DNA of 64,000 bases from an uncultured Acidimicrobiia bacterium (GCA_963819945.1 CAWFYD010000005.1:18374-82373); one strand, 5' to 3'; counted from the first letter of the stretch, positions 5,767-38,899 are shown. The notes: generated by a model not told the origin, from the sequence alone. Translations and numbers: made by a program.

Positions 5767-5816
5767 TTTTGGCGTCACCTAGGCACGCGCATAGCTGCAC
5801 GTACACGACGCCAAAA
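5767..5816. repeat. Palindromic element copy 1 (TTTTGGCGTC-30 nt core-GACGCCAAAA)
   Basis: Read directly. Perfect 10-bp inverted termini. It nearly fills the convergent gap between SDR stop 5760 and DUF559 stop 5817, leaving only 6 nt after the SDR stop. Core is related to copy 2. Confidence 0.85.
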
Positions 5817-6711
5817 TCATGGTGCGCGGTCTCGGAGGGCTTGGCGCGATCGCGCGCGCAGGCAGGGCGCCCCTCGGCGGAGATCGGTCGGGCCGACGTC
5901 GATCGGGAGCCAGCTCGCCGCGATGAGCTCGTGCCGTCGGGCGCGGTCGTGCTTCGTCGCCGCACGCCCGGTGTGGAACTCGTCCGAGTCGTACTCGATC
6001 GCGATCCGCGCGTCCGGGTACGCAGCATCGACTCGTCCGATGCAGACGCGCACCATGCCAGACCTCGTACTGCGGACCGGCTCCGGAAGTCCGTGGGCCC
6101 GGATCGCTTGCATCAGGAGCGTCTCCATCTCGCTCTCCGTCGGCCGCTGCTCGGGCGCACGTACGCCAGGAGCAGCTCCCGGAGCACCGGTCCGCCGGGC
6201 CGACCCGAGCGACTGAGCCGCCTGACGGTCGCGACGAGCTCCGCTTCGCTGACGAGCCCGCGTCGCAAGGCGTTCTCGAGCGCGAGCTCGACCAGCCCGA
6301 TCCGCCAGACGCCACCCAGATCGAACAGCGTCCGAGCCGGTGTCGTCGTCGGGATGTTCGAGACGACTGCGACGTCGAGCGGATCGAGCACCTTCGTCTC
6401 GTGCACGATGAGTCCGTCATGACGGGCGCGCCGCCACCGCGGGCAGGTGATCTCGGCCAGGTCCCGTCGGCCGCCGGGCAGGCCGTGCAACGCCGCCGCC
6501 GACCGATGCGAAGCGACCGCCCGGAACCCGCCGGCCCAACACGCGGCCAGCACGGTCCCCTCCCACGACCGGCGCACCGTTCACGCGGTACACGTCGTGG
6601 TGGAGCTCCTCCACCGCCTGCGACGCGATCCGAGCGACGATCTGACGGGCGCGAGAGGCCCGCCATGCGTGCGTGCGCGCCGCGGAAGACCCCGTGGTGC
6701 TCGAGCGGCAT
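5817..6711 (-). pseudogene. DUF559 (Vsr/restriction-endonuclease-like fold) protein with AbiEi-like N-terminal region, three frame switches
   Basis: Pieces in four minus frames: MPLEHHGVFRGAHARMAGLS; RQIVARIASQAVEELHHDVYRVNGAP; SWEGTVLAACWAG...LRELLLAYV (ORF 6113..6577); METLLMQAIRAHGLPEP...IAIEYDSDEFHTGRAATKHDRARRHEL (ORF 5817..6128). Switches near 6650, 6575 and 6125. Confidence 0.65.
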
Positions 6712-6800
6712 GCACGCGCGAGACGCTCGTCCGCCTCGAGTTCGACATCCATGTCGATTTCCATGGCCGGCAGTCCAGCCGCGACCTGGGACACCAACGA

Positions 6801-6847
6801 TTTTGGCGTCGACGTAGGTGCGCATATGCGCACGCACGACGCCAAAA
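6801..6847. repeat. Palindromic element copy 2 (TTTTGGCGTCG-core-CGACGCCAAAA)
   Basis: Read directly. 11-bp inverted termini. The core contains the perfect 16-bp palindrome GTGCGCATATGCGCAC (6818-6833). Lies 20 nt beyond the gpmA stop. Confidence 0.85.
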
Positions 6848-6867
6848 CGTGCGGGCTGGCGGGCGCT

Positions 6868-7593
6868 CTAGCCGGCTTGCTTGGCTACTGCGGCCGCGGC
6901 GGCCGCGGCGGCTTCGGGGTCGAGGTAGCGGCTCTCGACCACCTGGAAATGGTCGTCGAGCTCGTACACGAGGGGTTGGCCGGTGCCGATGTTGTACTTG
7001 ACGATGTCGGCCTCGCTCATGCCGTCGAGGTGCTTCACCAGTCCGCGCAGCGAGTTGCCGTGCGCGGCGACGAGCGTCACGCGCCCGGCGGCCAGGTCCG
7101 GCACGATCGAGTCGTACCAGTACGGGAGCATCCGCTCGACGACATCCGCGAGACACTCCGACTTCGGGATCAGCTCCGCCGGAAGGTCGCGGTAGCGCGG
7201 GTCCTCCGACGCGTCCCACTCCAGCGGCGGCGGCGGCACGTCGTAGGAGCGCCGCCACTCGAGCAGCTTCTCCTCGCCGAACTCCTCCGCGGTCTGCAAC
7301 TTGTCCTTGCCCTGCAGCGCGCCGTAGTGACGCTCGTTCAACCGCCATGACCGGCGCACCGGGATCCACGACCGGTCACAGGCCCGCAGCGCGAGCTCGG
7401 CCGTGTGGATCGCCCGGATCTGGAGCGACGTGTGCACGACTTCGGGCAGCACGCCGTGCTCCTGCAGCAGCTCGCCGCCGTGGATCGCCTCCTCGATGCC
7501 CTTCGGGGTCAGACCCACGTCCACCCAGCCGGTGAACAGGTTCTCGAGGTTCCAGGTGCTCTGCCCGTGACGGAGCAGGATCAAAGTCGACAT
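6868..7593 (-). CDS. gpmA: 2,3-bisphosphoglycerate-dependent phosphoglycerate mutase
   Basis: ORF 6868..7635, start taken at ATG 7593 ([18 protein letters not shown] motif). Contains ...[12 protein letters not shown]...AAHGNSLR. Uninterrupted. Confidence 0.9.
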
Positions 7594-7627
7594 GACGCCG
7601 AGGCTAGGTCGCGCGAGAGTCAGGGCC

Positions 7628-8383
7628 ATGAACAACGACGGCTTCTACGGCCAGGCCCAGGCCGCGATCCACCACGACCGGTTCGGCGACCTGGCGACGG
7701 ACGCGGCGAAGGCGCTCGCGGGTGAGCTGGTCTCGCACGGGCTGACGACGGGAACCGTCACGGACCTCGGCTGCGGCTCCGGCATCCTCGCCGGCATCAT
7801 GAGCGACCTCGGCTACGACGTTCGCGGCTACGACATCTCCGCGGACATGCTCGAGCTCGCCGCCGCGCAACGCGCCCCGCGCCACGTTCCGCAACGAGTC
7901 GCTCGTCGACGCATCGATCCCGCCGTCGGTCGGGGTGACGGCGATCGGCGAGGCCCTCAACTACGCGACCGACCCTCGGGCCGGCCTCGTTGCGACCGTC
8001 TCCGTCGCCCAACGGGTCTTCGACGCGCTCGCCCCCGGTGGCACGTTCCTGTTCGACGTCTCCACCCCCGGGCGGAACCTCGGCGCTCGCCGTCCGCGAG
8101 CGGATCCACGAAGGCGACGGCTGGATGCTGGCCATGCGGGCCGAGGAGTCCGGCTACCAGCTCGACCGGCGCATCACGATCTACTCGCGGGAGCCCGACG
8201 GCCGGTACGCGCGCGTCGACGAGCATCACGTCATCCATCTCTACGACCTCGACGCGGTGACCGCGATGCTCACCGAGCATCGGCTTCAAGGTCGAGACGC
8301 GGGCGAACTACGGCGCGACGCGATCCGACTCGACGCCACCGATGGGCTGGTCCGTGTTCGTGGCGACGAAGCCGCAGGCCTGA
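7628..8383 (+). pseudogene. Class I SAM-dependent methyltransferase, at least three frame switches
   Basis: MNNDGFYGQ...VTDLGCGSGILAG (ORF 7592..), AIGEALNYATDP...LAPGGTFLFDV (ORF 7935..), RERIHEGDGWMLAMRAEESGYQLDRRITIY (ORF 7990..), then a fourth frame GFKVETRANYG...MGWSVFVATKPQA ending at TGA 8381-8383. Confidence 0.65.
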
Positions 8384-8414
8384 GCCGAGCGCGCGAGAAC
8401 CTACGCGGGAGAAC

Positions 8415-9885
8415 CTAGGCGGGCAGGCCGACCGTCTTGGTCTCGAGGTACTCCTCGAAGCCCGCGATCCCGTGCTCGCGCCCGAGACCCGACTCCTTGT
8501 ACCCACCGAACGGCGAGTCCGGCCCGAACCACTGACCACCGTTGACCGCCACCGTCCCGGTCCGCAGACGCTTCGCGATCCCGTAGGCCCGGTCGAGGTC
8601 GGTGCCGTTCACCGCCGCCGACAGCCCGTAGCGCGAGTTGTTCGCGATGCGCACCGCGTCGTCGTCGTCCTCGTAGGGAATGACCGCGAGCACCGGCCCG
8701 AAGATCTCTTCCTGCGCGATCGTCGAATCGGGGTCGACGTCGACGAACAACGTGGGCTCGACGTAGAAGCCCTTCTCGAACTGCGGCGGCCGGCCGCCAC
8801 CGACGAGCAGGCGAGACCCCTCGCTCTTGCCCTTCTCGATCAGGCCGAGCACCCGCTCGCGCTGGCGCGCGTTGATGAGTGGACCCTGCAGGTTCGCCGG
8901 GTCCGTCGGGTCGCCGTACGTCCACGCCTCGAACGCGGCCTGCAGCAGCTCGACCCCTTCGTCGTAGCGCGAGCGCGGCAGCAACATGCGCGTGGTGATC
9001 GCGCAGCCCTGACCACCGTGCATGCAGACCATCGCGCCACCGCCCATCTGGGCCGGGAAGTCCGCGTCGTCGAGGATGATGTTCGCCGACTTGCCCCCGA
9101 GCTCGAGGAACACCCGCTTCAGGGTGTCCGAGCCCTGCGCCATGATCCGCTTCCCGACGACGGTCGATCCGGTGAAGCTGATCATGTCGACGTCGCGGCT
9201 CGCGCTGAGCACCTCGCCCACCGCCGCCGGATCACTCGAGGTGACGACGTTCAGCACCCCGGCCGGGATGTCCGTGTACTCCGCCGCGAGGCGACCGATG
9301 TGGGTCGCGCTCCACGGCGTGTCCGGCGCCGGCTTGAGAATCACCGTGTTGCCCGGCCGCGAGCGCGGGAACGATCTTGGAGAGGTTGAGCATGAACGGG
9401 AAGTTCCACGGCGTGATCGCGCCCACGACGCCGATCGGCTCGCGCAGGACGCGACGACCGCTCGTCATCCCGAAGAACTCATGGACCGGGAGGTCGTACT
9501 CCCACTCGATGCGGTCGATGCACTCGATGTCCCACTCCATGTCGTCGATGCAGCTGTCCATCTGCACCGCGTACGTGAGCATGATCGGCGAGCCGACCTC
9601 GGCGACGATCTGGGGGCGCAACGTCTCGCGCTCCTTGGCCAGCGCCTCGTGCAGCTGGCGCAGGCACCGCTTCCGCAGCTCGGGGTCGGTCGCCCAGGCC
9701 GACTCGTCGAACGCCCGACGGGCCGCACCGACCGCGCGCTGCATGTCGTCCACGCTCGCGTCGGCGACCGTGCCGATGACTTCCTCGGTGGCCGGATTGA
9801 CGTTGTCGTACCGGGCCCCCGAGGCCGCTTCGACGAGCTCGCCGCCGATCAACATCCGGTGCTCGCCGCTCACCGATTCCCCCAT
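8415..9885 (-). pseudogene. Aldehyde dehydrogenase family protein, one frame switch at a G/C run (plus-strand CCC 9353-9355)
   Basis: ORF 9232..9885 (MGESVSGEHRMLIGGELV...ITPWNFPFMLNLSKIVPALAAG) joins ORF 8415..9344 (ILKPAPDTP...FLELGGKS...EEIFGPV). Removing one G from GCGGCCGGGCAAC on the coding strand restores LAAGNTVILKP. Confidence 0.8.
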
Positions 9886-9926
9886 GACGCGTCTCCCTCG
9901 TTCCGGCTGGCGTTCGCGCCGAGGCT

Positions 9927-9946
9927 ACCTGACACCGGAGTCAGGT
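9927..9946. promoter_or_regulatory. Operator-like palindrome ACCTGAC-ACCGGA-GTCAGGT (class B)
   Basis: Perfect 7-bp inverted arms, 42 nt upstream of the ALDH start (9885). Near-identical core to the palindrome in the TetR promoter at 13182-13199. Confidence 0.4.
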
Positions 9947-9971
9947 CCCACCGCCACCTCCGTCTCGGCGT

Positions 9972-10918
9972 TCAGAGGACGCGGTCGGGGATGCCGAAGG
10001 ACGCGCGCACGTCGGCCAGCGGCTCGTGGGCCCGGGCGAGATGGTCGATCGTCGTGAAGTCCCCCGTGCACTGCGTGCCCCGCCAGAACGCGTGCGCGAC
10101 GGCCTCGGGCGCGCCGGGACGGGTGAGGCAACCTTCCTTCGGCACCAGCGACCCGCCGCCGTCGAGGTACCCGGCCTCGTGCACACCCAGGTTGCCGAGG
10201 AACTGGAACCAGTGGGCGTCGGTGTCGTTCATCCCCAGCTGCATCGCGCCGAGCGCGATCTCGTCGATCGCCACCGGCTCGTAGCCACCGATGACGTGCG
10301 ACATGTCGTGGGAGACGAAGACCGCGGGCATGTTGGTGCCGTCCCCGGCAGATCGAATCCGTAGCGCTCGTAGAACTCGACGTACGCGCGGCCGAGGGTT
10401 CCGGGCCCGGCGTCGGCCAGCGCCCGCAGCCGCGCCGCCAGCGCGGATCCGGCGCGTCGATGCTGTAGCCGGGGTACGCGGCGGCGAGCTGTGGCTCGAG
10501 CAGCGGCTTCGCGAGATCGCCACCGAGGAAGCGCATGTAGTCCGCCGCGGCCTGCGCCTTCCTCTGGTCCACGAGGTCACGGACGATCTGCAGACCCGGG
10601 CCCGCCTCCCCCATCGCGGCGCAGTACTCCTCGACCCGCGCCGGCCTGGCTGGCCGTCGCCGGGTGGCGGCACAGCTCCACGAAGACGAGGAGCTCCCGC
10701 ACCCGCCGGCGCTCGGCGGCCGGGCCGAACGCGTCCGCCGTCGCCGCCGGCGAGAGCGGCTCGGCGGCACCCGGATCGAAATCGATCTCGTAGTAGCCCC
10801 GGGCCAGCGCGGCGATGACGGCCAGCTGCTCGGCGGTCGGTCCGCCGTCGACGTCGGCCGCGCCGACCATCGCCCGCAGCGCCGGCTCGGCGTGCTCGGC
10901 ATCGATGATCCTCGGCAT
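9972..10918 (-). pseudogene. Hypothetical protein with Coq4-like HDxxH-x11-E motif, several frame switches
   Basis: MPRIIDAEHAEPALRAMVGA...LLVFVELCRHPA (tail of ORF 10577..12118), VEEYCAAMGEAGPGLQIVRDLVDQRKAQAAADYMRF (ORF 9925..10947), FVSHDMSHVIGGYEPVAIDEIALGAMQLG... (ORF 9972..10673). Family call is tentative. Confidence 0.45.
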
Positions 10919-10990
10919 GGCTCGTCCGTTCCTTCGCTTCTCGGCACCCGTGTCCAGCCGGGGTGACGGCGACGCGTACCCTAACTTGGC

Positions 10991-12532: not shown

Positions 12533-12546
12533 CCCGAGGCGCTCCG

Positions 12547-13167
12547 CTAGCCGGCCACCGTCCGGAACACGATCCGCGCCGTCGTCTCCACCACTTCGGC
12601 GCGCGTCGCGCCATACGGCTCGAGATCGACATGGAACGCGGCCATGCGCTCCATCATCGCGACGAGCGCCGCGGCCGCCGCGTACGGAGCGATGCCCTCG
12701 GCGCCGTTCTCGGCGACCTTCCGTGACAAGCCTTGCGTGATCGGCTGCAGCGACGCGTTGCGCACGTCACGAAACCGCTGATCACCTTCCTGGGCTGCGA
12801 GGTTGCGCGTGCGCAAGATCGCCCGGTGGTCGTCCCAGTAGCGGAGGAAGCCGTCGACGAGCCGGCGCGCCGACTCGAGCCCGGCTTCGCCCTGCCACGG
12901 CGAGTCCAGCAGCTCGACCAGCGGCGACGTCTGCTCCCCGACCGTCTCCGCGAGCGCGAGCACCGCTTCTTCGACGTCGCGGAAGTACTGGTAGAAGGTC
13001 GCGGGCGACGTCCCGACCGCACGCGCGATGTCGACGACGCGCAGGTCGCGCAACCCGTTGCTCTCGAGCTGCTCACCGGTGGCATCGAGCAACCGGCGTC
13101 GCGTCGCCGCGCCCCGCTTGCCCAGTGCCCGCCCGTCGAGCGCGACCGTGTTCTCCGCCGCCGTCAC
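12547..13167 (-). CDS. TetR/AcrR family transcriptional regulator
   Basis: Uninterrupted 206-aa ORF (GTG start). N-terminal HTH LRVVDIARAVGTSPATFYQYF. Confidence 0.85.
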   Translation of the reverse strand: MTAAENTVALDGRALGKRGAATRRRLLDATGEQLESNGLRDLRVVDIARAVGTSPATFYQYFRDVEEAVLALAETVGEQTSPLVELLDSPWQGEAGLESARRLVDGFLRYWDDHRAILRTRNLAAQEGDQRFRDVRNASLQPITQGLSRKVAENGAEGIAPYAAAAALVAMMERMAAFHVDLEPYGATRAEVVETTARIVFRTVAG

Positions 13168-13181
13168 GGCTGGTCAGGGTA

Positions 13182-13199
13182 TCTGACACCGGCGTCAGA
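13182..13199. promoter_or_regulatory. Operator-like palindrome TCTGAC-ACCGGC-GTCAGA (class B) in the TetR divergent promoter
   Basis: Perfect 6-bp inverted arms, centred in the 60-nt gap between the TetR start (13167, minus) and the 13228 operon (plus). Confidence 0.45.
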
Positions 13200-13227
13200 C
13201 TCCCGCGCCATGCGAGGATGCACGGCC

Positions 13228-14096: not shown

Positions 14097-14159
14097 CGTC
14101 GATCTCGCGCTCACCGCTCTGCTCGTCGACGCGGCCGGTCCCGTCGTAGCGTGGGGATC

Positions 14160-16252: not shown

Positions 16253-16269
16253 TCGCGTCACCTCCCCCA

Positions 16270-24423: not shown

Positions 24424-24486
24424 GGTGGTTCCCTCCGGGAGGGGTCCCGGTTCCGGGAACCACACCGCCCGTCACCAGCTCTTGAC

Positions 24487-25100: not shown

Positions 25101-25120
25101 GACCGCCTCCGAAGCGTGGA

Positions 25121-25986: not shown

Positions 25987-26013
25987 GAGGGTGCCTGACC
26001 ACTGAATTCCGGT

Positions 26014-26956: not shown

Positions 26957-27141
26957 AAGACACCCACCCTTCGGTACCTGTCATCGGCACCGCGGGCGAG
27001 TGGTTGAACCTCAATGTGAACCGGTTACGCCCGCCGACGCCGTGCCGTCGACTCGTTCCTCGTTTCGGGCGCGTAGCCGTCGCTATGGCGACACGTACGC
27101 CGCCCCGAAAGGTATCTCGCCGCGACTGGTCCGGGCGGGAG

Positions 27142-28043
27142 CTACAGGGTCTTGGCGAGGGTGTCGGCGTGGTGGTCGATGGAGCCGAAGTGGGTGTCGA
27201 GGACCCAGGCGCGCTTGAGGTAGAGGTGCACGTCGACCTCCCAGGTGAAGCCCATGCCGCCGAACACCTGCGTCGCCGACTTCCCGTTCGTGATCGCGGC
27301 TTCGTTCGCCAGCAGCTTGGCGCCGCTCACCGACCGGACGAGATCGCCGGTGCGACGGGTCGTCGAGCACGCACGCCGCCGCGTACACCGCGGCCCGCGC
27401 GACCTCGGCCCGCACCACCATGTCCGCGCACAGGTGCTTCACCGCCTGGAACGAGCCGATCGGGCGGTTGAACTGCTCCCGCTCCTTCGCGTAGGCCACC
27501 GCGAGGTCGACCAGCGCGTCGGCCATCCCGACGCAGAACGCGGCGGTCAGCAACGCGCCTTCGCGTCCGCAGCGTGGCCAGCGCGTCGACGTGGCCGACG
27601 TGGGTCAGCGGCGGCAGCTCCACCGGCGTCACGGGGGTCAGCGGGTCGAGCGGCCAGTCGGCCGCCGACCCGGTCAGCGTCGACGGGTCGATGATCGCGA
27701 TGCCCGTGTCGTCGAGCACCACGAGCGCTTCGAGCGCGTCGAGGTGCTCGACGTAGCGCGTCCCGCCGACGGTGAGGTCCAGACCGCCGGTGATCGCGTC
27801 GCGGCCGAAGCTCCAGACCAGCGGCCCGGGGACCAGCGCGCGACCGAGCTCCTCGTAGACGATCGCCGCGTCGGCCCAGCCGAACCCGTCGGCCCGCAGC
27901 GAGAAGACGCCGGCTTCCTTCAGGTCGTCGTAGGTGGAGCGGTCGAAGCCCTCGCGCACCCGGCTCATCGGGAACTTGCCCTCGAGCAGGCTGCGGATGC
28001 CGTCGCGGAGCGCGACCTGGTCTTCGGAGAGGTCGAAGTTCAC
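27142..28043 (-). pseudogene. Acyl-CoA dehydrogenase family protein (short, partner-type subunit), two frame switches
   Basis: MNFDLSEDQVALRDGIRSLLEGKF (ORF 27327..28043), LLTAAFCVGMADALVDLAVAYAKEREQFNRPIGSFQAVKH (ORF 27083..27553), GGMGFTWEVDVHLYLKRAW (ORF 27142..27330). ATGA-type overlap with the upstream ACAD. Confidence 0.7.
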
Positions 28044-29185
28044 TTGGGCGTCGGCTCCTTCGGCAGCCCCAGCACGCGCTCCCCCAGGATGTTGCGCTGG
28101 ATCTGCGAGGTCCCCGCGGCGATCGTGAGCGCGAGCGTGCGCAACCGCTCCTCCACGAACTCCCCCTTGCCGTCGACGACGAGCCCGTCGCGTTCGAGCA
28201 CCCGCAGCGACAGCTCACCGAGCCGCTGCCGGGTCTCGGAGTACGCGAGCTTCATCATGAACGCGCCACGCCCGGGCGTGCCGCGCGAGGACTGCGTCAC
28301 GTTGCGCTTCGTCAACGCCCACTGCGCGTCGAGCTCCGCGGCGACGTGGCCGAGCTCGCGGCGGTGCGCCGGATCCTTCACGAGCGGTGCGAGATCCTCG
28401 ACGAGCCGCATCGCATCGACGAGCTCGCTCACGAACGCGGTGCCGCGCTCGAACGACAGCGTGACGTTGGTGACCCGCCACCCGTCGTTCTCCTCGCCGA
28501 CCCGGCACGACACCGGGACGCGCACCTCGTCGAGGAACAGCTCGGCGAACTCCGAGGATCCGAGCACCGTCTTCAGCGGCCGCACCTCGATGCCGGGCAG
28601 GTCCATCGGCAGCATGAGCCAGCTGATGCCGGCGTGCTTCTTCACGTCGGGATCGGTGCGGACGAGCAGCTCGCCGAAGTCGCCGATCTGGCCGAACGAG
28701 CACCAGATCTTCTGGCCGGTCACGACGTAGTGATCGCCGTCGCGCACCGCGCGGGTGCGCAGCGACGCGAGGTCCGATCCCGCGCCCGGCTCGGAGAAGC
28801 CCTGGCACCACACCTCGTCGCCGCGCAGGATCTTGGGCAGGTGGTCGCGCTTCTGCTCGTCGGTGCCCTCGGCCACGATCGTCGGCCCCGCGTGCAGGAG
28901 CCCGACGAAGTTGACGCCCACGTACGGCGCCCGGGCCCGGGTCGTCTCCTCGAGGAAGATCAGCTGCTGGCTCGACGGCAGGTCCTGACCGCCGTACTCC
29001 TTCGGCCAGTTGAGGCCCGCGTACCCGTGGTCGAACAGCCGGCGCTGCCAGTCCGTGTCCCAGGCCCGGCGGGCGATCCAGTCGTCCCGGGCCGGCTGCG
29101 GCGCCAGGTCGGGAAGCTCGGACGCGAGCCACGTGCGGAGGTCGGCGCGGAAGGCCTCGTCGGCTTCGGAGTATCGGAGATCCAT
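28040..29185 (-). CDS. Acyl-CoA dehydrogenase family protein
   Basis: Uninterrupted 381-aa ORF: ...WCQGFSEPGAGSDLASL...GQKIWCSFG...TIAAGTSQIQRNILGERVLGLP. Confidence 0.85.
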   Translation of the reverse strand: MDLRYSEADEAFRADLRTWLASELPDLAPQPARDDWIARRAWDTDWQRRLFDHGYAGLNWPKEYGGQDLPSSQQLIFLEETTRARAPYVGVNFVGLLHAGPTIVAEGTDEQKRDHLPKILRGDEVWCQGFSEPGAGSDLASLRTRAVRDGDHYVVTGQKIWCSFGQIGDFGELLVRTDPDVKKHAGISWLMLPMDLPGIEVRPLKTVLGSSEFAELFLDEVRVPVSCRVGEENDGWRVTNVTLSFERGTAFVSELVDAMRLVEDLAPLVKDPAHRRELGHVAAELDAQWALTKRNVTQSSRGTPGRGAFMMKLAYSETRQRLGELSLRVLERDGLVVDGKGEFVEERLRTLALTIAAGTSQIQRNILGERVLGLPKEPTPK

Positions 29186-29207
29186 GCGGTGGCGGAGTCT
29201 ACGGGCC

Positions 29208-29228
29208 GACCTGACGACCCCTCAGATC
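29208..29228. promoter_or_regulatory. Operator-like palindrome GACCTGACGACCCCTCAGATC (class A, degenerate)
   Basis: 17 of 21 positions identical to 34882-34902. Lies 23 nt upstream of the ACAD operon start (29185). Confidence 0.3.
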
Positions 29229-29276
29229 CGGCGTTCCCGCGCTCGAATCGCGGCCGGGCCGGTCCACAATGACGGC

Positions 29277-30511
29277 GTGCAGGGCCCAGGCAGGCGACTC
29301 GCGGTCATCACGTTCGCCGCCGCCCTCATCGCGCTGACTCTCGCCGGCTGCGGCTGGATCCGAATGAGCCCGCGGGTGCTGGGACGAGGGCCGACCAGCG
29401 CGGTCGACGGCTTCGCACAGTTCACGGTGCCGCTGAGCTCCCGACAAATGCCGGCCATCGTGGCCGCCGGGCACTTCATCGTCGTCTACGGCGGGTACGT
29501 GTACGACGCGTCCAACCCGAAGAACAAGGTCCGGCCGCTCGGCGACGGCGCGGTGTACGACGTAACGAAGGGTGAGTGGACCGCCTTGCCGGCTTCGCCG
29601 TTCGAGTACCCGCTCTACCAGTCGTCGGGCGCATGGGACGGAAGCGAGGTCGTCATCACCGGCACGCCGTGCACCGGAACACCCGGAGAGGATTCCGAAG
29701 GCGACTACGCCTCGTGCGAGCCCGGTGGACAAGCGATCGGCGCCTACTCACCCACGAAGCGCATCTGGCGAACGATCAAGGTTCCCCCGGGCCTCACCGC
29801 TGACTACGGCGGGCGGATCACGCCGATACAGCTCCGCGCCTTCGGGTACGCGAACGGGCACGTCATCTTGGACGCGTCAATCTCTGTCCTTCAGCCACGC
29901 CGCCTGCTGCTCGCTCGACCCGAACACCGGTGCCTCGAAGTTGCTCACCGTGCCCGACGCCGGCATCGACTCGGTCTGCGTCACCGGACAGAAGCTGATC
30001 GCCGCGCATACCGGCGATGCCAATCCCGGCCCGATCCTCACCTTCGAGCTGGACTCCGCGCCTGAATTGGAAGCAGTTGCCGAATGCAATGCGATCGGCG
30101 GTCGCTCCCGCACTGTTCGTCGGTCAGCCGAACTGCGCCGCCGGTCAGCTGGTCTACTTCCCGATCCTCCAACCGCCGGTCGGCTTGGACGCCGGTGCGC
30201 TCTGGTACCTCCCCGACCGAGCAACGGTGGGAACCGCTCCCCCGCTTCGGATCGCTCGGCTTCCCGAATCTCGCACCGTCGAGCTTGCGTGGAACCCGCG
30301 CGCTCTGGAACAGCGGAGGAGACGAGATGTACCTCCTGCCCGCCGGCGCGACTGCGTGGATTCGGGTCAAGCATCCGCCAAGCTTCGGTGGCAGTACTCG
30401 AGCCAGCTCGACAACGCAATCCTGATGCATGACTGGGACGAGCGACCGCCCGCGGGAATCACGCTGACGCTGTTCGACCCGAACGCGTTCCTTCCGAAAC
30501 CGCCGGGCTGA
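29277..30511 (+). pseudogene. Putative lipoprotein (possible Kelch/beta-propeller-like repeats), about five frame switches
   Basis: GTG 29277; lipobox ALTLAGCG; AGHFIVVYGGYVYD...GAVYDVTKGEWTALP (ORF 29010..30065). Later pieces in ORFs 29572.., 30017.. and 30084... Confidence 0.5.
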
Positions 30512-30539
30512 CTCGCGCCTGGTCGGTAGGGTTCGGCGC

Positions 30540-31275
30540 GTGGAGTACGAGACGCAGGTCGACGCGGTGGAGCGGGAGCTGGCGGGGCTTGTCGCCGCGG
30601 CCGGTGCGGGCCCGCTCGACGCGCCCGTGCCGACGTGTCCGGGATTCACGGTCGACGACCTGGCCGCGCACGTCGGTGAGTTCTGCGGGTGGTGGACCCA
30701 CAACCTGTGCGAGGGAACGGGACGCCCGAAGACGCCGTACTCGGATGACGTCGGGCCGGAAGGTCGCGTCGAGTGGCTCGCGAGCCATCGGCGAGCATCT
30801 GGTGACCGAGCTGCGAGCCGCGGCGGCGGACACCGTCGTGTGGACGTGGAACCCGTCGGACCAGTCGGCCGCGTTCGTGGCCCGCAGAACCAGCAACGAG
30901 CTGGCCGTGCACCGCGTCGACATGCAGCTCGCGCGTGGTGCCGCGGAGCCGGTGGACGCGGAGCTCGCGGTCGACGGGATCGAGGAGATCATCGTGATCA
31001 TGACGCGCGGCCGCCCCGTCGATCCGGCGCTCCGGCCGACCACGCGCCAGACGTTGCACCTGCACGGCACCGACTACGAGCCGTCCGAGTGGTTCGATCG
31101 TGCTCGATCCCGACGGCGTGCAGGTCACCCGCGAGCACGCGAAGGGTGACCTCGCGTTGAAGGGCGGCGTGAGCGATCTCGAGATGCTCCTGTACCAGCG
31201 GCCGACGGTCGGCGCGGTCGAACGGTTCGGCGACGACTCGGTGCTCGAGACGTTCCACCGAGAGTTCACGTTCTG
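30540..31275 (+). pseudogene. Maleylpyruvate isomerase family mycothiol-dependent enzyme (MDMPI/DinB-like), about three frame switches
   Basis: GTG 30540 MEYETQVDAVERELAGLVAAAG...CPGFTVDDLAAHVGEF; VWTWNPSDQSAAFVARRTSNELAVHRVD (ORF 30589..). The last part, EWFIVLDPDGVQVTREHAKGDLALKG..., is my own translation, ending at TGA 31273-31275. Confidence 0.6.
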
Positions 31276-31287
31276 AGCACGCCGGCC

Positions 31288-31976
31288 GTGACCATCGGCG
31301 ACGCGGCCCGCAACAACGCGGAGCTGTGCGACATCGTGTGCCGGACCCACAACGTCGTCGGTGCCTTCGCCCCGGATGCGTGGACCAGTGCCGAGCGCAC
31401 TCCCCCGCTGTATCCCGACGCGGTCACGCTGCGGCCCGGCGTCTCCGCGTCCGGCCTGCTCGCGCGCATCGACGGCTCCCCTGGCTGCTCGATCAAGGAC
31501 AGCTTCGCCGACCTCGACCTCGGGCCGCACGGGTTCGAGATCCTGTTCGCGGCCGAATGGATCCAGCGGCCACCGACGAAGGCGAGCGGTGACGTCCCGC
31601 CCTGGATTCCGATCGTCGACGACGCAGTCGCTGGCCCGATGGTCGGCCGCGTGGGCCGACGCCGGCGACCCGACGGACCTGTTCCGCCCGGCCCTGCTCC
31701 GTCATCCCGACATCGTCGTGCTCGCGGCCATGGTCGGCCCCGAGGTGGTCGCCGGCGCGCTGGCGAACCGCAGCGCGCACGTCGTCGGACTGTCGAACGT
31801 CTTCGTGACGACCGCCGCGCCCGACGACGTCTGGCCCGGCTGCCTCGACGCGATCACCGCGACGTTTCCCGGCCTCCCGATCGTCGGGCTACGAACCGGC
31901 CGAGTCGCTGGAGACCGCGCGGCACTACGGGTTCACCTCACTGGGGCCGTTGCGGGTCTGGATCCGACCGGAATAG
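31288..31976 (+). pseudogene. GNAT-like acetyltransferase-fold hypothetical protein, two frame switches
   Basis: GTG 31288 MTIGDAARNNAELCDIVCRTH...; LARWSAAWADAGDP...HVVGLSNVFV (ORF 31361..). The last part, GYEPAESLETARHYGFTSLGPLRVWIRPE, is my own translation, ending at TAG 31974-31976. Confidence 0.45.
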
Positions 31977-31987
31977 CAACGCCTGGC

Positions 31988-32358
31988 TCACCACGCCGGC
32001 GGCGACGAGCACGAGCCCGATCGACCAGCCACGGGAGCGGGTTCAGGTGCTCCTCGCAGCCACTCGACGTCGCGGTGTGCCAGCACGTCGTGCCCGGGAC
32101 CGTCGCGCTGCACCCACGCGACGAAGAGGAACAGTGCCCCGGCACCGGCCAGCAACCCGAACGCGGATCGCTGCGAGCTCGGACGGATCGCGAGCCACAC
32201 CGCCAGCGCCGGCGAGCGGGATGACCGCGACAACGAGCACCACGACGAACGAGATCAGGCCGAGCACCAAGGCCGCAGCCGATCAGTGCCCACACGCAGA
32301 ACCAGGCCCACCCGACGAGATGCGACCGGCGTCTCGTCCGCAGCCCGGCTCGGCTCAT
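31988..32358 (-). pseudogene. Small polytopic membrane protein, 2-3 frame switches
   Basis: ATG 32358 overlaps the VOC stop (ATGA). Hydrophobic segments HLVGWAWFCVWALIGCGLG, LVLGLISFVVVLVVAVIPLAG and FGLLAGAGALFLFVAWV lie in three different frames (ORFs 31933.., 32043.., 31988..). Confidence 0.35.
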
Positions 32359-32792
32359 TGGTGCAGGCGGCGGGCGAACTGGTCGCCGGCGAGCAGCTCG
32401 ATGATCTGACCGTCCGGGTCCGCGACGAACACCGCGTTCGGCAGGCGCGACTCCTCGAACACCGTGCCGCCGTGGGCGATGACCGCCGCGCACGTGGCGT
32501 CGATGTCATCGACCCCGACCGAGAGGTGGGTCAGTCCCGGCTCGGTGATCGGCCGGACCCGCGGCGCCAACGGCTCCGGCTGCGCGAACGCGAGGAGCTC
32601 GAGCACGAAACCGTCGCGCTTCAGGTACACCGCGTGCATCTCGACCGGATCCGGCAGGCGCAGCAGCTTCGCCGACTGCGGCCCGCTGACGTCCAGCTCC
32701 ATCACTTCCTCGAACGCGAGCACCTCGACGTAGAACGCGCGCGACACGTCGAGATCACGAACGCACTGCCCGACGTGACTGAACATCACCAC
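32355..32792 (-). CDS. VOC (glyoxalase) family protein
   Basis: Uninterrupted 145-aa ORF: MFSHVGQCVRDLDVSRAFYVEVLAF...GLTHLSVGVDDIDA.... Confidence 0.8.
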   Translation of the reverse strand: MVMFSHVGQCVRDLDVSRAFYVEVLAFEEVMELDVSGPQSAKLLRLPDPVEMHAVYLKRDGFVLELLAFAQPEPLAPRVRPITEPGLTHLSVGVDDIDATCAAVIAHGGTVFEESRLPNAVFVADPDGQIIELLAGDQFARRLHQ

Positions 32793-32818
32793 GGCGCCGA
32801 TCCTGCCAGATCCCCACG

Positions 32819-32865
32819 TTTTGGCGTCGTACAGGCACCTCTACGGGGCCAAGGCGACGCCAAAA
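32819..32865. repeat. Palindromic element copy 3 (TTTTGGCGTCG-core-CGACGCCAAAA)
   Basis: Read directly. 11-bp inverted termini. Lies 11 nt beyond the phosphatase stop (32877) and 26 nt upstream of the VOC start (32792). Confidence 0.85.
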
Positions 32866-32876
32866 CGATGGGAGGG

Positions 32877-33624
32877 TCAGTCGAGGAGGGAGGTGCGGAT
32901 GCCTTCGACGGCGACGGGCTCGAGGCCGTGGGCGAGGACGTAGCCCTCGATGGAGCCGTACTCGCTGATCAGGTGCGTCGATGACCGCTCGCATCGCCAC
33001 CGCGTCCACCGCGTAGTGCTGCTTCGGCCACCTCCGCGATCGCCCCGTCGGTCGGCCCGGGCCTGGTGCCGCTCGAGCAGCACCGGCATGCGGTCGTGGG
33101 TCAGGCCGTAGTCGGCCGCGATCAGATCGGGATCCACGCCGAGCAGCCCGAGCACGAGCATGGCGACGAGCCCGGTGCGGTCCTTGCCGGCCGCGCAGTG
33201 GAAGACCAACGGCTGACGGTCCGTCTGCGCGATCACGCCGGAGCACTTCGACGAAGCTGGCGGCGAAGCGGTCGAGCATGAGCAGGTAGAGCCCGTCGAG
33301 CGGCTTGTCCGCGCGGCGTCTTCCCAACCGTCGGGCGGCGGGCGCGGGTCTCGTCGATGATCGGGATGTGCGCGACTTGCACGCCGAGCGAGCCGAGCGG
33401 GCCGTGGGTGAACTTGCTCGACCTCACCGACCCCGCGCAGATCGATGACGGTGCGCAGCCCGAGCACCTCGATGACGTGCCGGACGTCGGCGTCGCTCAT
33501 GTACGACAGCGAGTCGCTGCGGTACAGGCGACCGGTGCGCACGAACCGCCCGTGCATCGGTCTCGTAGCCGCCGACGTCGCGGAAGTTCGCGGGCCCGTC
33601 GAGCGGGATCAGTCGGTCCTGCAT
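32877..33624 (-). pseudogene. Protein-tyrosine/serine phosphatase family protein, about four frame switches
   Basis: MQDRLIPLDGPANFRDVGGYETD (tail of ORF 33424..34695), GRFVRTGRLYRSDSL...VIDLR, and the active-site loop VFHCAAGKDRTG (ORF 32877..33557). Confidence 0.65.
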
Positions 33625-33632
33625 CCGCCGAC

Positions 33633-34858
33633 CTACAGGTCGAGGCCGAGCATGCGGATCGCGTTCCCGCGGCAGATCTTGTCGACGACGTCCTGCGGGA
33701 GGAACTCCCATCATCGACGCGGCCAGCTCCTTGGTGTGGGGCCAGGTCGAGTCGGTGTGCGGGTAGTCCGTCTCGAACGTCGTGTTGTCGACGCCGACGC
33801 GGGCGAGCGACTCGAGGCCGTGCACGTCCCGGAAGAAGCAGCCGAAGACCTGGCGGTAGTAGTAGGTCGACGGCGGTTCGGGGACGATGTCCTTCACGCC
33901 ACCCCACGCCCGGTGCTCGCGCCACACGTCGTCGGCGCGCTCGAGGATGTACGGGATCCAGCCGATCTGGCCCTCGGAGTACGCCAGCTTCAGCTCGGGT
34001 GCCGCACGAGCACGCCGGAGAACAGGAAGTCCGCGAGGCTCGACATCGCGTTGCCGAAGCTCAGGGTCGCGGCGACCGCGACCGGCGCGTCGACCGACGT
34101 GGCCGGCATCTTCGAGCTCGAGCCGATGTGCATGCACACGACCGTCTGCGTCTCCTGGCACGCCGACGAAGAACGGGTCCCAGTAGCCGGTGTGGATGCT
34201 CGGCAGCCCGAGGTGCGGCGGGATCTCGCTGAAGCACACGGCTCGCACACCGCGCGCCGCGTTGCGACGAACCTCCGCCGCGGCGAGCTCGGCGTCCCAG
34301 AGCGGGATGAGCGTGAGCGGGATGAGCCGGCCGCCGCTGTCGCCGCACCACTCCTCGACCATCCAGTCGTTGTACGCGTAGACACACGCTTCCGCGAGCT
34401 CGCGGTCCTTCGCCTCGAGGAACGTCTGGCCGCAGAAGCGCGGGAAGGTCGGGAACGACAGCGACGCCTCGACCCAGTTGATGTCCATGTCGTCGAGGCG
34501 GGCCTTGGGCTCGTAGCAACCCGGCCGCATCTCGTCGTAGGTGATCGGCGACATCGTCATGTCGTCACGGTCGAAGCCGACCGACGCGACGTGGCGCTTG
34601 TTGATGTAGACGAGATCCTCGTAGACCCAGCAGTCGGCCTTCGGGCTCTCGTCGTCGAAGGTCTGCTCGTAGGTGCCGCCGCCGATGTGGCGCATGCCGG
34701 CGACCCCGCGGCGCTCGACCTTCGGCCCCCGGTCCCGGAAGCGGGCCGGGAGCCAGGTGTCCCAGAGGTGGGCGGGCTCGACGACGTGGTCGTCGACGCT
34801 CGACGATCCGCGGGATCTCGATGCCGGCCTCCGTGCCGTGCTCCGCCGTTGCGGTCAT
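33633..34858 (-). pseudogene. Amidohydrolase_2 (ACMSD-like) family protein, paralog of 14969..16252, about five frame switches
   Basis: MTATAEHGTEAGIEIPRIV (ORF 34565..34858), SSVDDHVVEP... by own translation, YNDWMVEEWCG, YSEGQIGWIPYILERA, ETDYPHTDSTWPH (ORF 33424..34695). C-terminus EFLPQDVVDKICRGNAIRMLGLDL ends at TAG 33633-33635. Confidence 0.7.
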
Positions 34859-34881
34859 CGTGCCTCCGCGCCCTGGCTCCG

Positions 34882-34902
34882 AATCTGACGACCCGTCAGA
34901 TT
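34882..34902. promoter_or_regulatory. Operator-like palindrome AATCTGACG-ACC-CGTCAGATT (class A)
   Basis: Perfect 9-bp inverted arms, 24 nt upstream of the amidohydrolase start (34858). Confidence 0.45.
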
Positions 34903-34962
34903 ACCGCCACGGCCCCCGGCGGCCTCGCAGCGGAGCGGTCCCGGGCGCGGAGTCGGGCCGCG

Positions 34963-36459
34963 TCACGCCGGGCAGTGCAGATCCGGCGCGGGCGGGCGCA
35001 ACCGGACGACGTAGGCGACCAGCGCATCGTCCAGGCAGGGGTTCGCCGAGAGGCTCGACGTGTGGCTCGTGCCCTCGACGGTGACGAGCCGGGCCGAGCC
35101 GAGCTCGCGGGTCAGGCTCTCGGCCCAGGCGATCGGGGTGGCCGGGTCCCCCGTCGTGCCCACCACGACGATCGGCGGCGCGTCGGGCGCGGTCACCGCC
35201 GTCGGCGTCCGGGTCACCGGCGGGACCGGCCAGTACGAGCACGTGAGCGTGAGGCCGATCGTCGAGACACCGAAGATCGGCGCCGCCGCCCGCGGCGTGC
35301 GCCTCGAGCGCGGGCAACGTGGACGGGGCGAGCTCGGGACCGTCGGCGCACGAGATCGCGAGGAACGCGGCCCACTCCGGCGAGTAGGTGCCGTCCGCCT
35401 TGCGCCCGACGTAGTCGTCGAAGCTCTCGAGCATCGTCGGCCGGATCGCCGTGCTCCGCCTCGCGCAGGGAGTGGGCCAGGTCGTCGTAGCCGTCCGCGC
35501 CCTCGTACAGCGGCGACGCGACCGCGAGGTCGAACTGCGTCGGGCCGAGCAGCTGGCCGTCGTCGCCCTTGATCGGCCGGCGGTCGACCTTGGCCCGCAG
35601 TGCGTTGAACGCCGGCCGCGGGCTTCCCGCCGTGATGGAACGCGCAGCTCTCGACGCTTCGCGCAGTCGGCGAGGAACGCGTCGAGCGAGCGCTCGAACC
35701 CCGTGCGACTGCTCGATCGACACCTGCTCGATCGACAACGCGGGGTCGATGGCTCCGTCGAGCACGAGCGCGCGGACGCGGTCCGGGTACTGCTGCGCGT
35801 ACAGCGCACCGATGTACGTGCCGTACGAGAGGCCGAGGAACGTCAGCTTCTCGTCGCCGAGCGCGGCGCGAATGTGCTCGAGATCCGGACGGTGTCGAGA
35901 CGTCGAGACGTGGCGGATGAGCGCGGGCTCCGCTGGTCGCACGCCTGCGCGAACCTCTTGGCCGCGGCTTCCCGGGCCGCGGACTCGGCCGCGTCGTCGG
36001 GCGCGACATCGACGTTGAAGAGGTAGTCGAGCCGGTCGCCACATCGGACCGGGCTGCTCCGGCCCGTGCCGCGGGGATCCCAGCCGACGACGTCGAACCG
36101 GTCGCTGATCTCGCTCGGGAGCACGCTCGGCCAGCTGGTCCACGATAGTCCGAGCCCGGCGCGCCCGGCCCGCCCGGGTTGACGACGATCGAGCCGATCC
36201 GCTCGTCGGGCTTCGCGGCCCGCACCCGGGCAGAGCGAGGCCGATCTTCTGGCCCGCGGGCTGCGCGGGGTCGAGCGGGACCTGGAGCGTGGCGCACTCG
36301 CCGTCTCCGCAGTCCGTCCAGTCGAGCGCGGCTTCGACCGGGCGCCTCGTCGCTCCGACGACCGTCGCGTGGCGTCACCGGTGCCGACGAGCTGCCGCCG
36401 CACGCGGCGAGCGCGAGGAGACCGGCAACGAGCAGCGCGACGGCGCGACGGGATGACAT
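34963..36459 (-). pseudogene. Secreted alpha/beta hydrolase (tripeptidyl-aminopeptidase-like) lipoprotein, many frame switches
   Basis: ATG 36459 MSSRRAVALLVAGLLALAACGGSS (lipobox); IGSIVVNPGGPGAPG; LTFLGLSYGTYIGALYAQQYPDRVRALVLDG (GxSxG; ORF 35214..36143); C-terminus VVVGTTGDPATPIAWAE...TVEGTSHTS (ORF 34963..). Confidence 0.65.
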
Positions 36460-36529
36460 GAGCCGACCACGGTGCCACACCGGCCGGGCTCGAACCGCGG
36501 CAGGGGTCGCAGCCATGTAGGTTTCGTCG

Positions 36530-37979
36530 ATGGTCCAGAGCTTGTTGGTGGGTGGACAGTCCCGCGCTGCACTCGACGGCAGCGAGTTCAGCGTGCGCGA
36601 GCCGTCGACCGGCGAGCGAGCTGGTCCAGGTGGCGCGGGCCGGTGCCGCGGATGTCGACGCGGCCGTCACGTCTGCGGTCGCGGCGTTCGAGAGCGGCGT
36701 CTGGGCCTCACGAGTCCGCGACCGGCGCGCGGCCGGGTGCTCATGAAGGTCGCGACACTGCTCCGGGAGCGGGCCGAGACGTTCGCGGTCGCGGAGGCGC
36801 GCAACGCCGGCAAGCCGATCGGCGACGCCCGCTGGGAGGTCGAGGCCGCAGCGGGGACCTTCGAGTACTACGCCGGCGCCGCGAACAAGCTGTTCGGCGA
36901 GGTGGTGCCGGTGCAGGACGCCGGGCTCGACGTCGTGCTGCGGGAGCCCGTCGGCGTCTGCGCGCTGATCGTCCCGTGGAACTTCCCGCTGCTCATCACG
37001 TGCTGGAAGACCGCGCCCGCGCTGGCGTGCGGCAACGCGGTGATCATCAAGCCGGCATCGCTCACGCCGGTGACCGCGTTGATGCTCGGCGAGCTGCTGG
37101 TCGAAGCCGGCGTCCCCGAGGGGTGCGTCTCGGTGATCCCCGGTCCCGGCAGCGTGGTCGGCGACGCGCTCGGTGAGCGATCCCCGGGTGAACAAGATCT
37201 CGTTCACCGGCGAGACCACGACCGGCGCGTCGATCCTGCGCGTCGTCGTCCGACAACATCACCCGCGTCTCACTCGAGCTCGGCGGGAAGTCGGCGTGCG
37301 TCGTGTTCGCCGACTCCGACTGGGAGCGGGCGGTCGAGGACACCGCGATGGCCGTGTTCGGCAACGCGGGCCAGGACTGCTGCGCCCGGAGCCGGATCGT
37401 GGTCGAGCAGTCCATCTACGACGACTTCGTCGCCGCGTTCGCCCGCCGGACCGAGCGCATCAAGGTCGGGGCGCCGCTCGAGGAGAGCACCGAGATGGGC
37501 CCGATGATCTCCCCGGCCCAGCGCCAGGTGTCGCTCGACTACCTCGAGATCGGCGCCGGCGAAGGGGCGGAGCGGGTGACGGGAGGCGAGATCCCGACGC
37601 GACCCGGCGTTCGAAGGTGGCTCGTACCTCACGCCCGCGGTGCTGGCGAACGTGGACAACGACATGCGCGTCGCGCGCGAGGAGATCTTCGGGCCGGTCG
37701 CGTCGGTGATCCCGTGCGCCGACGAAGCCGACGCGATCCGCATCGCCAACGACGGCGACTACGGGCTCTCGGGCTCGGTGTGGACCCGCGACCTCGGCGC
37801 GCGCGATCCGCGTCGGCAAGGCGATCCGCACCGGCGTGCTGTCCGTGAACTCGAACCGGAGCGTGCGCACCGAAGCGCCGTTCGGCGGCTACAAGCGCAG
37901 CGGCCTCGGCCGCGAGCTCGGCATGCACGCGATGCAGCACTACACCGAGGTCAAGAACCTCTTCCTCTCCTCCGAGTAG
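36530..37979 (+). pseudogene. Aldehyde dehydrogenase family protein, about six frame switches
   Basis: ATG 36530; LIVPWNFPLLITCWKTAPALACGNAVIIKPA (ORF 36530..), LELGGKSA-type and EEIFGPV pieces in ORFs 37303.. and 37640... C-terminus [15 protein letters not shown]...KNLFLSSE ends at TAG 37977-37979. Confidence 0.75.
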
Positions 37980-38006
37980 CCCGTCGCGCCCGCCGTAGCG
38001 CTCGGT

Positions 38007-38074
38007 TTTTGGCGTCAGGCCCTTCGCGTTTGCGCAGGTCAGAGCGTCGCGACTTCAGCCTTACGACGCCAAAA
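38007..38074. repeat. Palindromic element copy 4 (TTTTGGCGTC-48 nt core-GACGCCAAAA)
   Basis: Read directly. The core has nested self-complementary AGGC/GCCT and TCGCG/CGCGA. Lies 27 nt beyond the ALDH stop. Confidence 0.85.
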
Positions 38075-38852
38075 CGTTGGGCTCAGGGGTCCGTCACCAC
38101 TGGTTCGGGGGGAGGGGGCCGCCGGGAATCGTCGCCACCGACCGCAACTCGTCGCGGCAGCGTTGCGCAGTCGGCGCCGATGTCGCCCTGCACCGCCAGA
38201 TCGCCCGCGACGCCCCGGCCGTCGATGCCTCCGGGTTCGAGGAAGAGCCGAGCAGTCCAGTCGCCCGTACTGCTTCGCTGTATCCGGAGCTCCGGAGCGG
38301 CTCGCCGGGTCCCGGCATGGACCGACGAGTCGGCTCACCACGTCACCGCGGCGAGCAGGGCGCGGCATCCCGCGGAGGTCTCGAGGCCTCCGGGCAGCAG
38401 CAAGCACTGGCCCTACCGGAGGCGTCGGCCACTGCGTCGACGCGCGTGAGATGCCCGCGGCGTCACCGGTGATCGACCGGTACCTGAGCGTCACAGTCGC
38501 CGATGTCGTAAGCCTGGATCCCCAACACGGAGTCGGTCGCCGATCGAGACGCGACCGAGAATCAGCCGGCACTGGCGACGCCGCGTCCGGCCATGTCGGG
38601 TGGCCGGCACTCGATCGCTGAGCGACCTGACAGCTTTGAATGCACCATCCCCAGCGTGCTGGAGCTGCCGGGAACTCGGTGACGAGTCGAACTCGCTATT
38701 CGACGATCCCATGGCCGCGAACGAGGTGAGCCCGCGCCGCGATCACGGCGAGGTCAACACCCTGCCGCGTCCGGTGATTCCTCCCGCTCCGCCCGATGCT
38801 CCACACACGCTCATGCACCCGCCGCCCCCGCGATCGCGTCGCTGCCAACAGA

Positions 38853-38899
38853 TTTTGGCGTCGCCTAGGACCCGTATGGGGTCCCTCTTGACGCCAAAA
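38853..38899. repeat. Palindromic element copy 5 (TTTTGGCGTC-27 nt core-GACGCCAAAA)
   Basis: Read directly. The core contains GGACCC-GTATG-GGGTCC. Lies 16 nt beyond the cupin gene stop (38916). Confidence 0.85.

Follow-up and report, generated by a model that had tools for sequence, protein, structure and literature searches.

The window and its palindromic elements

A 64,000-nt stretch of DNA (one strand, G+C 70-72%; hereafter the window) from an uncultured Acidimicrobiia bacterium was analysed for a family of five short palindromes and for the gene enclosed by two of them, which encodes a predicted protein with an AbiEi-type winged helix-turn-helix (wHTH) part and a Vsr/DUF559-like nuclease part. 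This nuclease gene, an orthologue of P0004, is located at 5817..6764 on the minus strand and has a hairpin on each side. Hairpin 1 (5767..5816, 30-nt core; all hairpins are given without strand) lies directly 3′ of its stop codon (TCA 5817-5819) and 6 nt past the stop of a convergent short-chain dehydrogenase/reductase (SDR) gene. Hairpin 2 (6801..6847, 27-nt core) lies 5′ of the gene, 20 nt past the stop of a gpmA-like His_Phos_1 gene, and is followed by a 36-nt leader (6765..6800, minus strand) that extends to the nuclease start codon and holds a recurrent TCGTTGGTGTC-like motif. Hairpin 3 (32819..32865) is a solo copy between the stop of a Y_phosphatase3 gene and the start of a glyoxalase-family gene. 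Hairpin 4 (38007..38074), with an atypical 48-nt core, is found 27 nt past the stop of an aldehyde dehydrogenase (ALDH) gene, at the left edge of a window-specific insertion, and hairpin 5 (38853..38899, 27-nt core) lies 16 nt from the stop of a cupin gene. The names given earlier to these neighbours were upheld by Pfam (adh_short, His_Phos_1, Y_phosphatase3, Aldedh and Cupin).

Searching the window with the pattern TTTTGGCGTC-N15-45-GACGCCAAAA yielded four matches, compared with none in 100 dinucleotide-preserving shuffles. A search with the arm alone, allowing at most one mismatch, returned 10 exact hits, representing five elements on two strands (1.8 expected), and no one-mismatch matches; the fifth copy (38007-38074), with its 48-nt core, was recovered in this way. 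Both searches confirmed the five copies at the coordinates given by the first-pass annotation, which had been made from the window sequence alone, and the 11-bp arms that it had assigned to copies 2 and 3 were found as well. Folding, which it had put forward as a check, gave hairpins on both strands for all five copies (-21 to -35 kcal/mol, z -2.7 to -7.4). The arms of hairpin 4 are perfect and its core folds as a longer nested stem; this copy was missed by a covariance model. Run over the window with filters off, the model detected no further or degenerate copies.

Anatomy and distribution of the family

The pattern search proposed in the first-pass annotation was extended beyond the window using one representative genome per species. 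The same element was found in at least 116 further stretches, nearly all of them from Acidimicrobiia or from unclassified Actinomycetota metagenome-assembled genomes (MAGs). It is a hairpin of ~47-49 nt with conserved basal arms, G-TTTTGGCGTC...GACGCCAAAA-C, and a core of 27 nt (71/126 copies) or 28 nt (34/126 copies). Conservation reaches one base past each arm, with G at position -1 in 102/125 and C at position +1 in 97/126 copies, with C-rich sequence preceding the element and G-rich sequence following it. Neither a target-site duplication nor a direct repeat was seen at the element flanks.

Pairing was assessed on a gap-free alignment of 70 copies, using a 22-bp stem and a 5-nt loop. The stem was paired in 84.7% of cases versus 71.2% after shuffling, and the covariation score was 0.335, versus 0.12 for shuffles and 0.07-0.10 for slid partner columns. 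The centre of the core is AT-rich (0.53-0.73) and flanked by GC-rich stem segments, and TAGG is present only in the cores of this lineage. At other loci, the covariance model retrieved copies with one or two arm changes, some of them compensatory (TTTC...GAAA), and sister families having only GCGTC...GACGC in common. The earlier description of invariant arms around freely varying cores was correct in part. Within the window every copy has perfect arms, but across genomes the arms do vary, often in a compensatory manner, and the sister families depart further. The cores do differ and are self-complementary, but their fixed length, stem covariation and similarity within a genome show that they are not freely variable. 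No gathering-score match to Rfam was obtained across the window, and nothing relevant was found at E up to 1 around two of the copies; neither Rfam nor the searchable literature contained the family, in line with the earlier remark that the motif was not recognised as a described repeat family.

Several loci, designated below by L and a number, deviated from this picture. Solo hairpins with this geometry and different arms were present at L043 (2727-2775, GAACTTGCGTC...GACGCAAGTTC) and L010 (4468-4517, ATGATGCGTC...GACGCATCAT), where the main family is TTTTGGCGTC, and there may accordingly be more than one arm family per genome. Most copies are singlets; occasional doublets 12-25 nt apart, which recall REPIN-like pairs, were observed at L004 (45-93 and 106-154) and, 3′ of the gene, at L132 and L173. 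Exact arm matches with odd core lengths were seen in non-actinobacterial MAGs (Pirellula, Casimicrobium, Alphaproteobacteria and others; L049, L053, L066, L074, L080 and L084) and may be due to chance or contamination. A typical element in a MAG labelled Bifidobacterium breve (L020) suggests that this MAG was mis-binned.

A nuclease gene bracketed by hairpins

Copies 1 and 2 are 1,034 bp apart, and pairs at ~1 kb were also found in L003, L014 and L065. The ~1-kb intervals between such paired hairpins each encode a protein of ~300 amino acids, all belonging to one family. Eight such genes were detected by tblastn in the window and 116 loci, each of them flanked by a hairpin on either side. Direct reading of the eight loci placed the end of the upstream hairpin 33-52 nt ahead of the start codon; the downstream hairpin abuts or overlaps the stop codon.

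For a reciprocal test, 80 metagenome loci were chosen solely for encoding the protein. Hairpins of the TTTTGGCGTC type, with no more than two changes in each arm, were present on 37 of 69 assessable upstream sides and on 38 of 70 downstream sides, at stereotyped distances. Nearly all remaining sides carried hairpins of the same size and position with compensatory variant arms, for example GAACTTGCGTC...GACGCAAGTTC, GAACCGGCGTC...GACGCCGGTTC and TTTTGGCGCC...GGCGCCAAAA. Altogether, 92 such hairpins were counted in 263 kb of these loci versus one after shuffling. Proteins of 38-40% identity are accompanied by the arms GGTTCTGATGGG...CCCATCAGAACC, and a 32%-identical homologue on a 5.2-Mb contig (L197) has unrelated, perfect palindromes of 41-45 bp on each side (2862-2902 and 3909-3953, TGGTAGCAAAAGGCGAGGT...). 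Protein identity was correlated with outer-arm identity (r = 0.48; 0/2000 Mantel permutations reached this value), and each protein lineage appears to have its own palindrome. At L198 and L199, palindromes of ~45-50 bp were observed just 5′ of the gene.

Because the gene was bracketed by hairpins in every genome examined, it is a candidate cognate enzyme inside the window. The first-pass annotation had listed it as a mere DUF559 neighbour, which the bracketing at 8/8 genome loci and nearly all of the 80 metagenome loci contradicts, and had stated that the window contains no RAYT/transposase-like gene. That statement remains valid in that no Y1/RAYT gene is involved, but it overlooked the AbiEi plus Vsr-like gene.

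In the leader, the upstream hairpin is directly followed by a TCGTTG(N)TGTC-like motif, at 33-41 nt from the start codon (window 6765-6800, L003, L014, L033 and L065). This motif may function as a -35-like promoter element or as an additional site for the protein.

Domain composition of the protein

Pfam assigned AbiEi_4 and AbiEi_1 to the N-terminal part of the protein and REase_MTES_1575/DUF559 to the C-terminal part, and residues 13-193 matched the PADLOC AbiEi models (E 1e-30). An AlphaFold model of the orthologue of the window gene (76 sequences) had a pLDDT of 93. When this model was searched with Foldseek, the N-terminal ~200 residues matched the AbiEi antitoxin 6y8q (E 1e-5), and the C-terminal ~100 residues matched the catalytic domain of I-Bth0305I (3r3p; TM 0.75, rmsd 3.1) and also NGO0050 (3hrl) and the nuclease domains of PvuRts1I and AbaSI. 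The match to 3r3p at sequence level is weak (E 0.61); DUF559, Vsr and 3r3p have been grouped as one PD-(D/E)XK class (PMC3424549). Residues D245, E256, S259 and H263 are invariant in the 76 sequences. In the model, a complete AbiEi DNA-binding module is joined to a nuclease domain of the Vsr/EDxHD PD-(D/E)XK type.

AbiEi proteins bind inverted repeats 5′ of their own genes (PMC7319586, PMC3985639). An AbiEii (DUF1814) toxin gene adjoining the nuclease gene was not found, the neighbours being SDR and His_Phos_1 genes in the window and unrelated genes elsewhere. The family comprises 7,197 clusters at 50% identity (E <= 1e-30), whose members carry generic names, if any: 'hypothetical protein', 'very-short-patch-repair endonuclease' or 'predicted transcriptional regulator of viral defense system'. 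Among plasmid homologues, just AbiEi-only matches from Thermus were obtained.

Turnover between genomes

Cores are more alike within a MAG (identity 0.70) than between MAGs (0.40), a difference that was reached in 0/1000 permutations. Hairpins that flank the same gene show 79% identity to each other, versus 42% for random pairs. Paired hairpins are direct in 21 cases, inverted in 8 and indeterminate in 11.

Four loci syntenic with the window, at ~71-81% nucleotide identity, were compared. The order SDR-hairpin-gene-hairpin-gpmA of the window is repeated in L033. In L003 the cassette is present at the SDR site in the opposite orientation, and in L029 the gene is absent and one hairpin lies between the SDR and gpmA stops. 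L108 lacks hairpin 3 at the orthologous site. Between its ALDH and cupin genes lies one hairpin, in place of the hairpin 4, 778-bp segment (38075..38852, no strand) and hairpin 5 of the window. The L108 orthologue of hairpin 5 matches it perfectly in the arms, and the two cores are ~70% identical. A locus-specific inverted duplication of the flanks, such as a palindrome-forming insertion would leave, was considered and rejected, as flank complementarity was slightly in excess at positions 2-5 only; this excess was attributed to a lineage-specific extension of the stem.

The 778-bp segment is not similar to the nuclease family (profile, tblastn and blastn searches) or to the other loci compared, and clear coding or codon periodicity was not found in it. 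On these grounds it was rejected as a decayed nuclease gene. It may represent the decayed cargo of a second cassette.

Position relative to genes and tests at the RNA level

Gene context was derived with a home-made codon-bias gene caller, and the counts are therefore approximate. Elements were convergent in 57, tandem in 41 and divergent in 8 cases, versus 147, 434 and 140, respectively, for the intergenic background. Every copy is located between genes or at a gene end. Placement just past stops, first noticed in the window, was borne out by a median distance of 14 nt from stop codon to element (120 copies), solo copies lying 2-30 nt past stops.

On the transcribed strand of 36 tandem contexts, G.U pairs (21) were not above A.C mismatches (28), which argues against selection on RNA structure. 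A protein-bound 3′ RNA stem-loop, one of the possibilities raised in the first-pass annotation, is not supported by this result, nor by the gain and loss of copies between related genomes. In the interval 28000-44000 of the window, canonical hairpin plus T-run terminators were not above chance (2 versus 3.2 expected) and no sigma-70-like promoters were found, as is usual in high-GC Actinomycetota. The terminator scan did not call the palindromes: their T-run is 5′ and their A-run 3′, both are paired, and no U-tract follows the stem on either strand. They are therefore not canonical intrinsic terminators, as had been concluded before, and the broader proposal of a sequence-specifically recognised REP/MITE-like repeat rather than generic terminators stands.

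A putative cognate nuclease-palindrome system

Fixed-length palindromes are dispersed through these genomes and bracket one nuclease family at nearly all of the loci examined, across wide divergence. The arms show lineage-specific compensatory changes, the cores evolve in concert, and related genomes are polymorphic for the presence and the orientation of the elements. Taken together, these observations are best accommodated, at a probability of roughly 0.6, if the hairpins and the AbiEi-Vsr gene form a cognate nuclease-palindrome system, mobile or domesticated, that is functionally analogous to REPIN/RAYT or to a free-standing homing endonuclease. In such a system, the AbiEi module would bind the conserved arms, a dimer probably spanning the fixed-length palindrome or its extruded cruciform, and the Vsr-like domain would cut within the AT-rich centre or close to it. 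Through repair or strand transfer that draws on other copies, hairpins would then be copied, homogenised, gained and lost; with a hairpin-gene-hairpin unit as donor, a solo hairpin could receive the gene itself, in either orientation. If the hairpins also act in termination or mRNA stabilisation, that effect would be a secondary one. The wider proposition that this is an unrecognised class of self-propagating or domesticated elements is given about even odds. Under it, a REPIN/RAYT-like system would have evolved a second time and independently, with a homing-type PD-(D/E)XK nuclease, in place of a Y1 transposase, recognising the fixed-length palindrome by its arms and driving the copying and homogenisation of the palindrome.

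Several points weigh against a cognate system. Binding, cleavage and copying by the protein are all steps that we infer, and no target-site duplication or defined insertion signature was found that would account for the arrival of a hairpin at a hairpin-free site. The gene occupies the same locus in three species (71-81% nucleotide identity). Homologous recombination between the flanking hairpins, independent of the nuclease, could explain deletion and inversion, and the arm-protein correlation could reflect physical linkage alone. The perfect arms at the hairpin 5/L108 site and the lack of degenerate relics in the window would also fit a host function under purifying selection. Copy number appears modest, with a solo-copy density of ~1 per 100-150 kb according to a very rough estimate from by-catch. 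Finally, the gene is frameshifted in the window: aligning it with its orthologue, to which it is 81% identical in frame, takes at least 3-4 frame changes. The frameshifts are likely to be long-read homopolymer or assembly indels rather than signs of a pseudogene, since the SDR stop (5758-5760) is also out of frame in the window, probably owing to a one-base homopolymer indel (an extra C in a C-run), orthologues confirming that TAA as the real stop, and the ALDH open reading frame (ORF; 36530-37979) is broken as well.

Comparison with known systems

The closest parallel is with repetitive extragenic palindromes (REPs) and their associated tyrosine transposases (RAYTs), in which a low-copy, largely vertically inherited gene is bracketed by cognate repeats and the repeats evolve in concert (PMC5581495, PMC3116915). 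The present family shares this gene arrangement and concerted evolution, with its own repeat for each gene lineage, and like REP/REPIN sequences its members are short intergenic palindromes dispersed mostly at gene 3′ ends (five in the window and at least 116 further stretches). The enzyme is different, being AbiEi-wHTH plus Vsr-like PD-(D/E)XK according to Pfam, PADLOC and the fold search and not an IS200-like Y1/HUH protein. The repeat differs as well: it has no GTAG head, its flank consensus is C-rich followed by G(-1), it is conserved at the stem base and it has a fixed length of 47-48 bp. REPIN doublets occur in hundreds; the hairpins at the loci compared are mostly singlets with few doublets (L004, L132 and L173), and their copy number may be in the tens.

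Resemblance to EDxHD/Vsr homing endonucleases such as I-Bth0305I (3R3P) is seen in the C-terminal fold (TM 0.75), in the conserved acidic and histidine residues and in the multidomain layout of a DNA-binding part with a Vsr-like nuclease. The footprint of I-Bth0305I, a homodimer, spans ~60 bp around a central pseudopalindrome (PMC3239194), which would fit a 47-49-bp palindrome as target. Unlike homing endonuclease genes, however, the gene is free-standing and intergenic, with no intron, intein or split gene around it; an entire AbiEi protein makes up the N-terminal module; and the presumed target is a multi-copy palindrome that is intact on both sides of the gene rather than a single disrupted host-gene site. 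A solo hairpin, a cassette and an inverted cassette at one locus would be compatible with cleavage-driven copying of the gene. With the AbiEi antitoxin of type IV AbiE systems, the protein shares its N-terminal ~185-200 residues and an inverted repeat 5′ of the start codon. It differs from AbiE in having a nuclease domain instead of an adjoining AbiEii nucleotidyltransferase, and in that the inverted repeat is also found 3′ of the gene and dispersed through the genome.

Conserved inverted ends around a variable centre, location near stops and structured single strands recall miniature inverted-repeat transposable elements (MITEs; the Correia elements of Neisseria) and integron attC sites. Unlike MITEs, the hairpins have no target-site duplication and no associated DDE transposase, slight extra flank complementarity being confined to positions 2-5. 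The attC core sites read RYYYAAC...GTTRRRY and belong to a cassette array beside intI, whereas the ends here are TTTTGGC...GCCAAAA, no integrase is associated and the neighbours are syntenic housekeeping genes. Intrinsic terminators, too, are GC-rich hairpins just past stops, often between convergent genes, but in the palindromes the T-run is 5′ and paired without a 3′ U-tract, the sequence is conserved and not the structure alone, an RNA-strand bias is lacking and there is a tie to one gene family.

Alternative explanations

The hairpins could be host regulatory elements, that is, transcript-end signals (factor-dependent or I-shaped terminators, 3′ mRNA stabilisers or roadblocks) in a lineage without U-tract terminators, with the AbiEi-nuclease as a regulator and its own upstream copy as operator. 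Their position 2-30 nt past stops, the excess of convergent over divergent contexts (57 versus 8, background 147 versus 140) and the chance-level count of canonical hairpin plus T-run terminators in the window would be expected of such signals; so would the identical arms at an orthologous solo site and the lack of decayed window copies, and AbiEi proteins are known to autoregulate via inverted repeats (PMC7319586). Yet the stem has no following U-tract on either strand, the transcribed strand has no excess of G.U pairs over A.C mismatches (21 versus 28), and five copies per 64 kb, with fewer elsewhere, are far too few for most operon ends. Copies are also gained and lost between 80%-identical genomes. 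Independent selection at each locus cannot account for the similarity of cores within a genome, and a regulator has no need of a conserved nuclease active site. We consider a host-regulatory role unlikely. The same holds, to a similar degree, for the proposal that only the hairpin-gene-hairpin unit is mobile, in a homing-type or transposon-like manner that lands it at gene 3′ ends, and that solo hairpins are inert recombination scars, comparable to solo long terminal repeats and not mobilised in trans. The solo hairpin of L029 sits exactly at the cassette site of the window, L033 and L003; the flanking hairpins, as 79%-identical 47-bp repeats, are able to recombine; hairpins 4 and 5 around a decayed 778-bp segment could enclose dying cargo; and solo copies outnumber gene-flanking ones only ~7:1 in the genome sample. 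Scars should decay, however, and the arms are perfect in the five window copies and at the hairpin 5/L108 site despite ~20% genome divergence, with no relics detected by the covariance model. Moreover, a gene at one locus across three species resembles a resident gene more than a jumping one.

Assignment to a known repeat class, be it a true REP/RAYT pair, a MITE of a DDE transposon or an integron attC site, is highly improbable. Short palindromic intergenic repeats beside stop codons are common to such classes, conserved ends with a variable structured centre recall attC, and terminal inverted repeats recall MITEs. The bracketed gene is nevertheless AbiEi plus Vsr-like and not a Y1/HUH transposase, the conserved GTAG head and a target-site duplication are absent, the ends depart from the R''/R' consensus of attC, syntenic housekeeping genes and not cassettes lie on either side, and Rfam gave no match. 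High-GC genomes are rich in inverted repeats, which is the one argument for chance or generic GC-rich hairpins of no common origin; the absence of matches in 100 shuffles, the fixed length at 116 or more further loci, the strong covariation and the tie to one gene family make this explanation practically negligible. A cognate nuclease-palindrome system is thus preferred over these alternatives.

Significance

To our knowledge, REP/RAYT is the textbook and nearly the sole bacterial repeat population that is kept by a resident, vertically inherited enzyme. What would be new here is a REP/RAYT-like partnership of repeat and enzyme with a different enzyme and a different repeat architecture. No description of it was found, and no paper in the searchable literature linked the AbiEi/DUF559 protein family with dispersed palindromes. 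If the proposed system is real, it would be a second repeat-enzyme pairing, with another catalytic fold and in another phylum, and this lifestyle would have evolved more than once. It would provide a function for 7,197 clusters named 'AbiEi antitoxin domain', 'DUF559' or 'very-short-patch-repair endonuclease'. It would also account for the conspicuous intergenic palindromes of Acidimicrobiia, which are abundant in soil and freshwater and mostly uncultured. The lineages would constitute a natural series of matched nuclease and palindrome specificities, and with matched sets of arms and proteins, specificity is directly testable in vitro.

For annotation pipelines, the hairpins could be flagged and gene ends corrected where ORFs enter the arms. 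In some loci, the nuclease ORF was seen to run into the downstream hairpin (L003, 4879-4926; L099, 3037-3083; the C-terminus of P0004), the arm GGTTTTGGCGTC then encoding a C-terminal ...GFGV.

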